Virus record (IMG/VR): IMGVR_UViG_2690316231_000009
Location: 1 to 14,246 of that record
Source of the DNA: a virus
Taxonomy: Duplodnaviria > Heunggongvirae > Uroviricota > Caudoviricetes
Reading direction: 5' to 3' (one strand)
DNA: 14,246 nucleotides
Below, in pieces: positions 521-9,740 of this stretch. The position numbers and the translations under genes were made by a program. The notes below the pieces were generated by a model, which saw nothing but the letters and a program-made list of their open reading frames with translations, did not search any database and had not been told where the DNA came from. The first letter of the stretch is position 1; every line of letters starts with the position of its first letter.

Positions 521-616
521 AGAAATGAAAAAAGGCCACGCAGTTGCGCAGCCTGATAAACCCTGGTTAAAATCCACACGATAACAACACAACAATATCA
601 GTATCTCATGCTATTG

Positions 617-641
617 CCCGAACCCATTCGGGCATTTTTTA
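617..641 (+). terminator. Candidate rho-independent terminator, plus strand
   Basis: GCCCGAA (617-623) / TTCGGGC (628-634) 7-bp stem, 4-nt loop, followed by ATTTTTT (635-641). No plus-strand ORF lies upstream, so the terminated transcript is unknown. Confidence 0.45.
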
Positions 642-646
642 CCCAT

Positions 647-673
647 AAAAAATGCCCCTCCGGAGAGGGGCAT
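647..673 (-). terminator. Candidate rho-independent terminator, minus strand, downstream of the TerB-like gene and small hydrophobic ORF
   Basis: ATGCCCCTC (652-660) / GAGGGGCAT (665-673) 9-bp stem with CGGA loop; A6 at 647-652 gives a U6 tract immediately 3' of the hairpin on the minus-strand transcript. Confidence 0.55.
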
Positions 674-838
674 GTTTGCATGCACATTCTTTTTCTTGCA
701 TGGTGCCGGGTGCCTCCCGGTGAATTCAGTATCAGCACCTGAATCCGCGATTATCCCATATACCTGGTTGCTGATCGCCCCTCCGCACAGGGGGATTCAC
801 CATGCAGAAGTGTTTTTAATAAACAGCAAATAAAAAAA

Positions 839-1006
839 TCAAGCATTATGCAGGCTGTTTCTTTTTATCACCGGCCACAGCAATACCACAATGCCGCAGA
901 CCAGCACCCCATCCGCCAGCACCGACATGATTCTGCTGGTGAAATCCACCATCACCACCAGAAACAGCAGGAGTGCAGCCACAGCCAGGCGCAGTTTTAC
1001 CGTCAC
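839..1006 (-). CDS. Possible small hydrophobic (membrane) protein, about 55 aa, translationally coupled to the upstream TerB-like gene
   Basis: Not in the ORF track (GTG start). GTG at 1006-1004 overlaps the TGA stop (1005-1003) of the TerB-like ORF. Translation VTVKLRLAVAALLLFLVVMVDFTSRIMSVLADGVLVCGIVVLLWPVIKRNSLHNA has two hydrophobic stretches. Stop TGA at 841-839. No independent SD; may be spurious. Confidence 0.3.
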   Translation of the reverse strand: MTVKLRLAVAALLLFLVVMVDFTSRIMSVLADGVLVCGIVVLLWPVIKRNSLHNA

Positions 1007-1435
1007 AGGTGATTCTCCAGACGAAGACCCAGAACACCGGCAATCTCTTCCAGCACCTTGCGCTCTTCCGGCTCAATTTCGCCGTCTGCCTCCGCAATGG
1101 CCACCGCCACATCCAGCACATCTTCCGCTTCACGCGTATCGTGTTTCACATCCTCGATCTCACGTAACGCCGCACGACGACCAGTTTTAAAGTTCGTATC
1201 CAGCTGACCGATAATGGTTGCGCTAATCGCATTAATTTCCGAGGTAAACGCAGACAACGCAGGCTGATTACGTAAGACCTGTTCGATCTTCGCTTTCTCG
1301 GAAGCCTCACATTCACCATCTGCACAGGCCACCAGGTATGCGGCGTTAATCACCGCCTGTGCCAGATCGCGTTTTTCAAACTTTTTAATTTCCGTTGCCG
1401 CTCTGCGGGCTTTTTTTACCAAAAATACCAAACAT
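1003..1435 (-). CDS. TerB-like (tellurite-resistance TerB family) protein; reading frame interrupted by an apparent 1-nt frameshift in an A7 homopolymer (1411-1417)
   Basis: The long in-frame ORF (track 1003..1464) can only start at TTG 1464-1462. A well-placed ATG at 1435-1433, preceded by AAGGA 8 nt upstream, is in the adjacent frame and stops after 16 codons (MFGIFGKKSPQSGNGN). Removing one A from the A7 run joins it to the long frame, giving MFGIFGKK-ARRAATEIKKFEKRDLAQAV.... The protein has two ADGE-type motifs (LVACADGECEASEK and AIAEADGEIEPEER) typical of TerB-like domains. Confidence 0.6.
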
Positions 1436-1566
1436 CGTGACGTTCCTTTGGGTGGGTGAGCCAACGCCCGGGAGCGATCTGCCCACAGAGAAAGTCACAC
1501 TGACCACTCCGTAAGCTCCCCCCCGAAAGGCTCTGTGGTTGGTATGCGCCGGGCGTGGCGCAGATA

Positions 1567-1600
1567 CAAAAAAGGCCCGCAAAAGCGAGACGGGAAAATA
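1567..1600 (-). terminator. Weak candidate terminator after the tRNA cluster
   Basis: On the minus strand a short GC-rich hairpin (CCCG...CGGG) is followed by CCTTTTTTG (RC of 1566-1574). Stem is only about 4 bp, so support is weak. Confidence 0.25.
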
Positions 1601-1607
1601 AGTGTAG

Positions 1608-1681
1608 CGCGTTGTACTGGAGTCGAACCAGTGACCGATTGCTTAGAAGGCAATTGCTCTGTCCTGCTGAGCTAACAACGC
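1608..1681 (-). tRNA. tRNA-Arg (anticodon UCU); the 3' CCA is not encoded (genome gives CUA)
   Basis: Manual cloverleaf fold of RC(1608-1681): acceptor GCGTTGT/ACAACGC (7 perfect pairs), D-stem GCTC/GAGC, anticodon stem ATTGC/GCAAT with loop CTTCTAA (anticodon TCT), T-arm ACTGG-TTCGACT-CCAGT, discriminator G. Positions 1605-1607 read TAG, so the 3' tail would be CUA rather than CCA. Confidence 0.8.
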
Positions 1682-1694
1682 AGAATACCGATAA

Positions 1695-1771
1695 TGGACC
1701 ACCACCGGGGACTCGAACCTCGCGCAACCAGCTTCGAAGGCTGACGCTCTATCCCGATGAGCTAATGGCGG
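1695..1771 (-). tRNA. tRNA-Arg (anticodon UCG), with a slightly imperfect cloverleaf
   Basis: RC(1695-1771) = CCGCCATTAGCTCATCGGGATAGAGCGTCAGCCTTCGAAGCTGGTTGCGCGAGGTTCGAGTCCCCGGTGGTGGTCCA. D-stem GCTC/GAGC, anticodon loop CTTCGAA (anticodon TCG), T-loop TTCGAGT, encoded CCA. Acceptor stem has two G-U pairs, T-stem has one A-C mismatch and position 1 is C. Confidence 0.7.
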
Positions 1772-1778
1772 TATGTGA

Positions 1779-1854
1779 TGGTGGCCCTTGCTGGATTTGA
1801 ACCAGCGACCTGGCGATTATGAGTCGCTCGCTCTCACCACTGAGCTAAAGGGCC
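1779..1854 (-). tRNA. tRNA with CAU anticodon, most like tRNA-Ile2 (ileX/ileZ type); part of a phage ileZ-argN-argO-like cluster
   Basis: RC(1779-1854) = GGCCCTTTAGCTCAGTGGTGAGAGCGAGCGACTCATAATCGCCAGGTCGCTGGTTCAAATCCAGCAAGGGCCACCA. Perfect acceptor stem, anticodon loop CTCATAA, T-arm GCTGG-TTCAAAT-CCAGC, encoded CCA. Closely resembles E. coli tRNA-Ile2 as I recall it. Spacers to the neighbouring tRNAs are 7 and 13 nt. Confidence 0.85.
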
Positions 1855-1882
1855 GAGCCAAAAAATAATAATCAGATGAAAA

Positions 1883-2596
1883 TCAATAATCAAGCCCTTG
1901 CCTGGATACATATCTGTCTGGCGGGAAGCCATAATAGCGGTGAAATACAGAAATAAAGTAGGACCTGCTTGAATAACCGCATTTTTCTGCTATAGTCTGT
2001 CCATATCCATGCCGGGAACATAACATATTTACAGCAACACGCATCCGCTCTTCCAGCAACAAGCGACTGAACATGCCCCCTTCATTTTTCAGTTTTGTCT
2101 TTAACAAACTCTCACTCATATGCAACTGTAGAGCAATCGCACCAAGCGTCCAGCTTGCTGATATATCTGTCTGAATTATCGCCCTGACTTTGGCACTTAT
2201 GCTGGATAAACATCCACTTAAAAACAATGACATCCGTTCATCTGTTTCAAACAGAGACAGGCAGGCCATCATAAGAAACATATCCGTGGCCTCTCCGGAA
2301 AATCCCTGGCTGGTAATTAAAGCCGCAGCCAACGCAGGATTGTTGGGTTCCAGCAACAGGTAAAGCGGAATGTCAGTCAGACGAGTCCTCGTCAGCTTAT
2401 GCTGACTTTCCAGATATTGACTTACGACGGATTCGCTTATATCGACAATTTTAACTTTGCCATAATGCATAAGGAAAAGCTCCCTGATGCATTTGGTGGC
2501 CAGAACAACTGAGCCTGGCTTAAGTGACAACGTATCCTTTTCAAGAAAAATATTAATTGGGGAGCAAACCATGATAACTGAACAGACAACAGCCAT
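1883..2596 (-). CDS. AraC/XylS-family transcriptional regulator (prophage moron)
   Basis: 237-aa ORF; the C-terminal about 100 aa (SESLLKTKLKNEGGMFSRLLLEERMRVAVNMLCSRHGYGQTIAEKCGYSSRSYFISVFHRYYGFPP) is a typical AraC-type double HTH. AT-rich relative to flanking phage genes. ATG at 2596 has no clear SD; an in-frame ATG at 2572 is an alternative start. Confidence 0.8.
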   Translation of the reverse strand: MAVVCSVIMVCSPINIFLEKDTLSLKPGSVVLATKCIRELFLMHYGKVKIVDISESVVSQYLESQHKLTRTRLTDIPLYLLLEPNNPALAAALITSQGFSGEATDMFLMMACLSLFETDERMSLFLSGCLSSISAKVRAIIQTDISASWTLGAIALQLHMSESLLKTKLKNEGGMFSRLLLEERMRVAVNMLCSRHGYGQTIAEKCGYSSRSYFISVFHRYYGFPPDRYVSRQGLDY

Positions 2597-3727: not shown

Positions 3728-4093
3728 CTAACGATCCATCTCTAGCTCAATTTCTAACATCATTAACATGCCATCAACTACACCTTCAGCTTTTTGCAAT
3801 AAACGCCCAACCCAGCAATCAGAACGCCCATGTTTACGGGCAAGCGCCATAAAAGTCATACCACCTACATAATAATCCACTAATAAATCGTGCAAATCGC
3901 TGTTGTTCTTTTTCAGGCGAGCCATGCATCCACAAATGATCATCGCGTCATCGTCACAACATTGCGGGCGGGATTTTACTTTTGAAGGGATTAGTCCTTT
4001 AAATCCTGCAGCAATAGACGACCAGGTGACATCCTCGTGATTATTTGCCACCCATGCCCCCCAACGTTCAAGAACCATTTGAATATCACGCAT
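3728..4093 (-). CDS. quuD: Late-gene antiterminator Q, QuuD-like
   Basis: Starting at ATG 4093-4091 (GGAG SD 7 nt upstream) the protein reads [75 protein letters not shown]..., which I recognise as very close to the DLP12 prophage antiterminator QuuD (YbcQ). The track start at 4108 is a TTG extension. Confidence 0.8.
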
Positions 4094-8362: not shown

Positions 8363-8583
8363 GCCACACCTCCCAGACGCTTAAACATTTTTCCGGAGCA
8401 AAAGGCTATAAGCGGCATACTGACGCGGTAATTACGGCCCAGCGGTTCACAAACCACCTTCTGACATTCACGGTCAACCAGGCTAACACGTAGAACATGC
8501 CCAGCAGGCGTGGTGTACCACTGACCCGGACGAGGACAACGGAAAGTATGATTGGTAAACCGTTTGAAAATATTCCGGATCAT
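8359..8583 (-). CDS. Hypothetical protein (74 aa)
   Basis: ATG 8583-8581 overlaps the TGA stop of the Rha ORF (ATGA). No recognisable motif. Confidence 0.4.
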   Translation of the reverse strand: MIRNIFKRFTNHTFRCPRPGQWYTTPAGHVLRVSLVDRECQKVVCEPLGRNYRVSMPLIAFCSGKMFKRLGGVA

Positions 8584-9740
8584 TTGCGCCCCCTTACCTC
8601 TGAAGGGTTCAGCGACAAATTTATGAGACTGGCCAGCGCCGAAGCATCATTAATATAGTCATATAAGCTAACAGCCAGCGGAGATTCGGCTTTTGCCAAC
8701 ATAGGATAAAGCTGCTGCAGCCAGACCTGATGAATTGATGAAATGTAGGAACAGAGAACGCTGGCGTTATGTGCAACGTCGCTCGGTACAGCGGGCTTTG
8801 AAAGCTGTTTCTCCATCTGGTTAAAGGCATTTATGTATGCCTCTTTGAACCGGGCAGCACGTTTACCCGTGAAACCCATAGCAAGAAACGCAAAACCGTC
8901 TCGTGTGATTTGATAGCAAGGGAGCTTGCGTGTACCACCGTTCGGTTGATTTACCGAAATCGATGTCTCCGCAAAATTGCGGGCACAAAACTCTGGGGAA
9001 CAATCCAGAGTGCGGATCTTTTTCAGCACATCGTCGTGACGCTTGGAGAAGAAGTTGGCAACAGCCAAAGAAGTGGTAACGGCCTGGCCGTTGTCAATGG
9101 TGATTTCAGGTTGAGTGAGGGCTGGGATCGTAGCCATGATGGCAGCCTCCGTTGACAGTGAAAAACTTCCACCACCGGAAACGCCAATTTCACTGGTGGT
9201 GAACTGGACGGGGTTGGCGTAACCGGCGTCAACGGAGACCGGCGCACCTTTCGGTGCCCCCGCCCAGCCCACCATAATCTGGATGTGAGCAAATGCGGAC
9301 GATAAAAAAGACGCTGGCGCGTCATACATCGCCGTTGACAATTTCAGGACGCCAATCCCGGCACCCGCTTTATAAGGTGCCTGAGCAGTGTAACGTCCCG
9401 GAATTGCAGAATCAATATGCTGGTGGTCCTTCACACTCAACAAAATCACGCCTGAATTTCCACAAAGGACTAAAGCACTCATGCGGGTAGTCTTTGCGAA
9501 GATAGATAACGCGCTGTGTTTCTGGCTCCCAACGAATAACATGGACATAAAGCCCTCTTCCGTCACGAAACCAGCGGTTAAGTTCCTGCACAACTCGCCC
9601 CCCACAGTCAGGTAAAGTTCTCTGTGGTTACTTACAGCCAGGTGATTTGGTAATCTGCATTCATGCCGTAACAACAGGTGTTCAGCGACGCTGACCACCA
9701 GCTGTTGCGACAAACGGTTATTTGCCGTTAAACTATTCAT
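8580..9740 (-). CDS. Rha-family phage regulatory protein with an about 200-aa N-terminal extension of unknown function; strong internal start at 9137
   Basis: 386-aa uninterrupted ORF. Residues about 220-310 (LAVANFFSKRHDDVLKKIRTLDCSPEFCARNFAETSISVNQPNGGTRKLPCYQITRDGFAFLAMGFTGKRAARFKEAYINAFNQME) form a Phage_pRha domain. ATG 9740 overlaps the CII-like stop (ATGA). An internal ATG at 9137 with GGAGG 8 nt upstream would give a 185-aa stand-alone Rha protein (MATIPALTQPEITIDNGQAV...). Confidence 0.6.
   Translation of the reverse strand: MNSLTANNRLSQQLVVSVAEHLLLRHECRLPNHLAVSNHRELYLTVGGELCRNLTAGFVTEEGFMSMLFVGSQKHSALSIFAKTTRMSALVLCGNSGVILLSVKDHQHIDSAIPGRYTAQAPYKAGAGIGVLKLSTAMYDAPASFLSSAFAHIQIMVGWAGAPKGAPVSVDAGYANPVQFTTSEIGVSGGGSFSLSTEAAIMATIPALTQPEITIDNGQAVTTSLAVANFFSKRHDDVLKKIRTLDCSPEFCARNFAETSISVNQPNGGTRKLPCYQITRDGFAFLAMGFTGKRAARFKEAYINAFNQMEKQLSKPAVPSDVAHNASVLCSYISSIHQVWLQQLYPMLAKAESPLAVSLYDYINDASALASLINLSLNPSEVRGRK

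Follow-up and report, generated by a model that had tools for sequence, protein, structure and literature searches.

The three tRNA genes in the 14,246-nt stretch of viral DNA analysed here (the window) are very probably the ileZ–argN–argO cassette of lambdoid phages of the 933W type, carried by a defective, toxin-less E. coli prophage that is integrated at dusA. The cassette is already known and has long been annotated in Stx phages, and the peculiarities of the window copy are ordinary point mutations. One of these changes the expected CCA end of argO to CUA, while others weaken the stems of argN. The cassette and its neighbours are arranged as follows.

3728..4093, minus strand: late antiterminator Q (Pfam Phage_antitermQ, 1.8e-51), 1.9 kb upstream of the tRNAs
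1883..2596, minus strand: AraC-family HTH gene, upstream of the cassette (Pfam HTH_AraC, 2.5e-13; HTH_18, 5.6e-10)
1865..1893, minus strand: sigma-70 promoter-like site, TTGATT–17-nt spacer–TATTAT (consensus scan, 9/12 matches)
1854..1779, minus strand: ileZ, tRNA-Ile2-type, anticodon CAU (ARAGORN; Rfam, 72.5 bits), CCA encoded
1771..1695, minus strand: argN, tRNA-Arg(UCG) (ARAGORN; Rfam, 43.0 bits), CCA encoded
1681..1605, minus strand: argO, tRNA-Arg(UCU), with its body at 1681..1608 (Rfam, 68.1 bits), discriminator G73, and CUA at 1607..1605
1566..1589, minus strand: intrinsic-terminator-like hairpin CTCGC–TTTT–GCGGG followed by a T run (scan)
1003–1431, minus strand: TerB-family gene, downstream cargo (Pfam TerB, 5e-15)
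839–1006, minus strand: DUF3927 gene, downstream cargo (Pfam DUF3927, 4.3e-17)

All three tRNA genes are detected by two independent methods, ARAGORN and the Rfam model RF00005 (E-values from 1.4e-14 to 1.8e-6), and all three exceed the RF00005 gathering score of 29 bits. PGAP annotates an identical copy of the cluster as tRNA-Ile, tRNA-Arg and tRNA-Arg, with no pseudogene flags, and stops the equivalent of argO at the discriminator, which makes it 74 nt long. The initial annotation described three tightly spaced tRNAs, with spacers of 7 and 13 nt, between an AraC-like and a TerB-like gene. ARAGORN, Rfam and a reading of the strand agree with this spacing (ileZ–argN, 1778..1772; argN–argO, 1694..1682, both on the minus strand), and the Pfam matches to HTH_AraC and TerB agree with the location; the minus-strand orientation of the cluster was absent from that description. 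A plus-strand ORF that overlaps the tRNAs (1555–1800) was set aside as a mechanical ORF.

Ten nucleotides separate the promoter-like site from ileZ, and the site reaches into the 3′ end of the AraC-family gene; the terminator-like hairpin begins 15 nt past argO. Promoter-like site, three tRNAs and putative terminator are arranged as a compact transcription unit within the late region, downstream of Q. The TerB and DUF3927 genes lie downstream of this unit and, in the annotated copy, are followed by holin and lysozyme genes. At window position 1588, the present prophage lineage carries a G-to-T change (GGCTCGC to GTCTCGC on the minus strand), and the outer pairs of the terminator stem are lost. 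These pairs are kept in 933W, Stx2a_WGPS6 and the PPompW prophages described below.

In the 933W record (NC_000924), Q, pR′ and tR′ are followed downstream by a putative tRNA promoter, pT, then ileZ, argN, argO, a terminator and stx2AB. The window aligns end to end with this tRNA unit, and the anticodons, the gene order and the orientation relative to Q are all the same. Its promoter-like site aligns with the feature labelled ‘pT; putative tRNA promoter’, its hairpin and T run align with the ‘possible rho-independent terminator upstream of the stx genes’, and its ileZ is 100% identical to that of 933W. In Stx2a_WGPS6 (AP012539), where the genes are named ileZ, argN and argO, both ileZ and argN are 100% identical to their window counterparts and argO differs at only two positions, A59C and C75U. 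The likeness to the ileZ–argN–argO cluster between Q and stx, which had been proposed from the sequence, is thus borne out by these alignments and by the shared promoter-like site and terminator. The gene names and the promoter and terminator labels derive from GenBank records plus a passing mention of a tRNA promoter, a tRNA-Ile and two tRNA-Arg genes between q and stx2 (PMC2858043). A search of the accessible literature on ileZ/argN/argO and on the function of these tRNAs found nothing useful.

In 933W, stx2AB occupies the slot that is held by TerB and DUF3927 in the window. Q and the tRNAs of the window are separated by the AraC-family gene and by two small ORFs, unlike in 933W. The ileZ–argN spacer is 9 nt long in 933W and 7 nt long in the window. 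Downstream of the TerB/DUF3927 cargo, the window contains STnc100 (641–831, minus strand, 143 bits), adjoined by a full-length copy of the anti-GcvB sRNA AgvB (579–640, plus strand, 96.5 bits). In 933W, it is STnc100 and AsxR that follow stx2B at the equivalent place. STnc100 is paired with AgvB at other loci too.

E. coli chromosomes of poultry and human origin match the window at 100%. The annotated copy, NZ_CP148445, places it in a lambdoid prophage at dusA with truncated tail genes and the type III effector gene nleG7. Because its tail genes are truncated, the prophage is probably defective, and selection on the cassette may consequently have lapsed. Its integration has left an incomplete dusA at the distal end; dusA, nleG7 and the tail genes were read at L129 20384–25261 and L003 22764–22868. 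Elsewhere in the window, the C4 antisense RNA (9192–9279, minus strand, 81.4 bits) and isrK (9304–9380, minus strand, 62.2 bits) both lie inside the coordinates of a Rha-family regulator ORF (8580–9740), an arrangement that resembles a P1/P7-type c4–ant immunity module placed within a lambdoid early region.

That argO encodes CUA where CCA is expected was noted initially and is correct: the three bases at 1607..1605 directly follow G73, while ileZ and argN both encode CCA. Two substitutions in argO are derived, C75U (plus-strand position 1606) and A59C (1622). A scan of IMG/VR for argO 3′ ends, with no constraint on position 59 or on the central base of CCA, gave, together with the window, two phage records and the annotated copy of the window, a set of 124 argO copies. 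Since 116 of these are A59/CCA, the CUA end is a derived C75U transition and not a general property of argO. Five copies, including the window and its annotated copy, carry C59/CUA, two carry C59/CCA and are otherwise decayed, and a single A59/CUA copy has an independent origin. CUA is a minority argO allele present in about 5% of IMG/VR copies; about 95% of those sampled encode CCA.

The exact C59/CUA allele nevertheless gives the best match in as many as 241 of the 2,299 argO-carrying E. coli records (complete genomes), among them O145, O111 and O103 strains, and it is also found in O157 PPompW phage records. Its body is that of the majority allele except for C17A, A59C and C75U. Because the allele persists on different prophage backbones and in up to 241 genome records, it is tolerated. 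Its recurrence in these complete genome records also led us to reject a sequencing error as the source of CUA. A phasing artefact was rejected as well. The initial annotation had allowed that CUA might fall within the mature sequence of a differently phased tRNA, but alignment with CCA-encoding homologues reveals no such shift, and the position is homologous to CCA in 933W, Stx2a_WGPS6 and phiSTEC1575. The gene carries A20, C35, U36 and G73, and so has the full identity set of E. coli tRNA-Arg (A20, C35, U/G36 and A/G73; PMC9976931). In the argO of 933W (L127 3296–3372), the UCU anticodon is followed by G37 and not by A37 (CTTCTGAGC). G37 is also found in a few IMG/VR copies of argO; the window copy has the usual A37.

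Every tRNA gene of E. coli has an encoded CCA, so the CCA-adding enzyme, which restores the ends, normally serves only in repair; RNase T trims A and U readily and stalls at 3′ C residues (PMC5824355). Since C75U leaves argO with a CUA 3′ end, its transcript would have to be trimmed and rebuilt. In the maturation pathway that we propose, RNase P would cut the 5′ ends of the tRNAs and so free the short 7- and 13-nt trailers, and exonucleases would shorten ileZ and argN to the CCA that each encodes. In the case of argO, the 3′ trailer, A76 and U75 would be removed by RNase T, RNase PH or RNase BN; alternatively, RNase BN could cut directly after the discriminator, as it does for CCA-less T4 tRNAs. 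The CCA-adding enzyme would then rebuild the 3′ end. Such a trim-and-rebuild route is plausible: it is available in E. coli and is needed by no host tRNA gene. A possible dependence on the CCA-adding enzyme had originally been assigned to argN, but this was misplaced, as argN encodes CCA and argO is the gene without it. The CUA allele would therefore be a natural and fairly widespread case in which a tRNA gene resident in E. coli should depend on the CCA-adding enzyme to mature. It could also be dead and persist because it is redundant with host argU and with other prophage copies.

The window ileZ matches K-12 ileX at 68 of 76 positions (89%) and is far from metT/metU. It has the sequence features of a tRNA-Ile2, including C4–G69 and C5–G68, which are E. 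coli TilS determinants (PMC1635315; PMC11947777), and an isoleucine identity through lysidine is the best reading of its sequence. The window copy is the majority allele (98 of 113 copies). Its A27·C43 pair (1828/1812), not mentioned in the initial annotation, is flagged as non-canonical in the Rfam alignment. K-12 ileX has G27·U43 and C6–G67 where the window ileZ has A27·C43 and U6–A67. As A27·C43 sits in the majority ileZ allele, a wobble-shaped non-Watson–Crick pair at 27–43 seems to be conserved in ileZ and not accidental.

[quoted passage not shown] It also added a third G·U pair and an unusual discriminator.

1769/1701, minus strand: G3·U70 pair of argN
1765/1705, minus strand: U7·G66 pair of argN
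1744/1728, minus strand: U27·G43, the third G·U pair of argN, newly noted
1720/1708, minus strand: A51·C63 mismatch of the argN T-stem
1698, minus strand: U73 discriminator of argN, newly noted

C1 had been counted among the defects of argN, but C1–G72 is present in 35 of the 37 argN alleles and also in K-12 proM. It is ancestral, and we rejected it as a sign of decay. U73 is found in every argN allele, where E. coli Arg identity prefers A or G (PMC9976931); A20, C35 and G36 are retained. Compared with the nearest intact allele, the window argN carries four transitions, all of which are located in stems. Its Rfam score of 43.0 bits is 11–15 bits below those of intact alleles (53.6–58 bits, 933W included) and equals the score of alleles with A6·A67, A52·C62 and A58G. 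Several argN alleles, including the ‘Lys’ form of PPompW, fall below the Rfam threshold. When scored on a fixed cloverleaf structure, the window argN has an energy of −23.3 kcal/mol vs −28.3 kcal/mol for the argN of 933W. In minimum-free-energy folding, neither ileZ nor argN forms a cloverleaf as unmodified RNA, and the z-scores are weak.

With one mismatch, three G·U pairs and a cloverleaf that is 5 kcal/mol weaker, the window argN still stands above the Rfam threshold, and its universal positions, A20, C35 and the anticodon loop are all intact. It is a weakened but still recognisable copy. The proposal that argN may be decaying holds for the gene family as a whole, as described below. For the window allele, decay is only suggested by the weakened stems and the low score, set against intact universal positions, and the chance that this allele is non-functional is roughly one in three.

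Constraint on argN was assessed across 93 IMG/VR clusters of standard architecture, in which nucleotide diversity is 0.003 in ileZ, 0.010 in argO outside the search pattern, 0.10 in argN (slightly inflated by two out-of-register calls) and 0.17 in the 13-nt spacer between argN and argO (spacer 2). There are about 40 argN alleles. Among the 37 in-register alleles, no compensatory double changes were found and pairing is no better than in shuffles, although the divergence of these alleles is too shallow for covariation to prove or disprove structure. At least two non-wobble stem mismatches occur in 35 of 102 argN copies, and changes at universally conserved positions are found in 39 of 93, mostly A58G (36 of 93), with U54 and G19 also changed in some. 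In eleven clusters (about 10%), argN survives only as a relic that has indels or in which the anticodon arm has been replaced. Anticodons altered to TTT, TCT and GCG also occur in the middle slot. Taken together, these data indicate that argN is under relaxed constraint across the phage family and evolves like spacer DNA. Annotation pipelines should allow for a middle gene that is a pseudogene in a sizeable share of prophages. In several clusters (L030, L071, L102 and L123), the anticodon arm of argN has been swapped for an unrelated segment of ~35 nt (…GAGCAGACGACACGATAACAGGGTTGTTGGTGCGGGG…) while both acceptor halves are kept, and this segment-swapped form is a recurrent rearranged relic.

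A close relative of the window cassette is found in the O157:H7 PPompW prophages (LC567822 and relatives). The 3′ half of their middle tRNA, with A51·C63 and G3·U70, is identical to that of the window, as are the argN–argO spacer and the C59/CUA allele of argO. The trailer and terminator differ from those of the window at a single base. The haplotype common to the window and PPompW therefore extends from the 3′ half of the middle tRNA through the spacer, argO and the trailer to the terminator. Unlike the window argN, the PPompW middle gene has a different anticodon arm with a UUU anticodon (called Lys) and a one-base deletion in the D-arm, and it gives no Rfam call. In PPompW_132418 (LC567822; L128 3678–3753), the anticodon stem differs from that of the window in a compensating manner (G30–C40 is replaced by A30–U40, and U27·G43 by U27–A43), and C7–G66 takes the place of U7·G66. 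An IS element follows the PPompW cassette.

The cassette probably serves to supplement the host tRNA pool. After lysidine formation by TilS, ileZ would support the scarce host readers of AUA, argO would support the scarce readers of AGA/AGG, and argN would add a UCG reader of CGA/CGG, which is absent from E. coli. Codon usage in prophage gene sets was compared, per 1000 codons, with that of 17 neighbouring host genes, a small baseline of 5,470 codons. ATA amounts to 4.5–22 in the prophage sets vs 2.2 in the host genes, and AGA plus AGG to 8.4–28 vs 1.4. CGA, by comparison, amounts to 3.9–7.3 vs 4.0, is enriched only in the smallest set, and makes up 0.07–0.11 of Arg codons vs 0.07 in the host. 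Enrichment of AUA and AGA/AGG but not of CGA fits the contrast between the near-invariant ileZ and argO and the weakly constrained, eroding argN, as far as this small host sample goes. CGG is enriched about fourfold in the prophage structural genes, and demand for its reading could still favour argN.

Both Arg genes might instead be dead relics, with argO-CUA not aminoacylatable and argN a pseudogene, which persist in a decaying prophage whose host has argU, ICG and CCG readers and sometimes other cassettes. This would agree with the defective state of the prophage, with a terminator stem that is also weakened in the window lineage, with the erosion or loss of argN in many related clusters, and with the two lesions themselves, a CUA end found in about one argO copy in twenty and an argN that has one mismatch and three G·U pairs and scores 11–15 bits below intact alleles. 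However, the CUA allele occurs intact in as many as 241 complete genome records, on several different prophage backbones, its tRNA body is the majority one apart from three substitutions, and E. coli has the enzymes to repair its end. The window argN, for its part, keeps the universal positions, A20, C35 and the anticodon loop, exceeds the Rfam threshold and has no PGAP pseudogene flag. We thus consider it unlikely that both genes are dead.

Phage tRNAs may also act as replacements that escape nucleases. Applied to this cassette, escape from tRNA-cleaving toxins or defence nucleases (e.g. those targeting tRNA-Arg) would be its chief role, and the speed of argN evolution would reflect diversifying escape. 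The hypervariability of argN beside near-invariant neighbours and the anticodon changes in the middle slot might be taken this way. We nonetheless regard such a role as very improbable, given that the variation strikes universal structural positions (A58, U54 and G19), breaks stem pairs without compensation and extends to indel-ridden relics, while argN varies least in the anticodon loop, which nucleases usually target. The ATA and AGA/AGG enrichment of prophage genes, moreover, fits supplementation. More far-fetched still is a changed or dual identity of the window argN, in which AlaRS would charge it through G3·U70 and U73, and CGA/CGG would be read partly as alanine. G3·U70 is the chief determinant of alanine identity and, when moved into other tRNAs, makes them accept alanine (PMC9976931); it is rare among argN alleles (2 of 37), and U73 is off-consensus for ArgRS. 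Yet of the five bacterial alanine determinants the window argN has just one (A73, G2–C71, G4–C69 and G20 are absent), it retains A20 and C35, the strong ArgRS determinants, and a single C-to-T transition under relaxed constraint gives a G·U pair by chance. Alanine mischarging is possible but unlikely to matter. Equally far-fetched is the broader picture of a middle slot released from its original job and drifting to new identities, with the window allele partly Ala-charged and causing low-level Arg-to-Ala reading at CGA/CGG, and its PPompW relative already moved to UUU.

The preferred reading, a 933W-type supplementation cassette with a weakened argN and a tolerated argO-CUA, can also be set against the tRNAs of other systems. 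K-12 argU, the host tRNA-Arg(UCU), has the anticodon loop, A20 and G73 in common with the window argO, but its stems differ throughout, and the window gene is the one without an encoded CCA. A parallel to argO-CUA is provided by CCA-less phage tRNA genes, such as some of those of T4, whose products are matured by RNase BN and the CCA-adding enzyme. There too, the 3′ end is built after transcription in E. coli. Unlike in those phages, the loss of CCA in argO is a recent single-base mutation and not a trait of the family.
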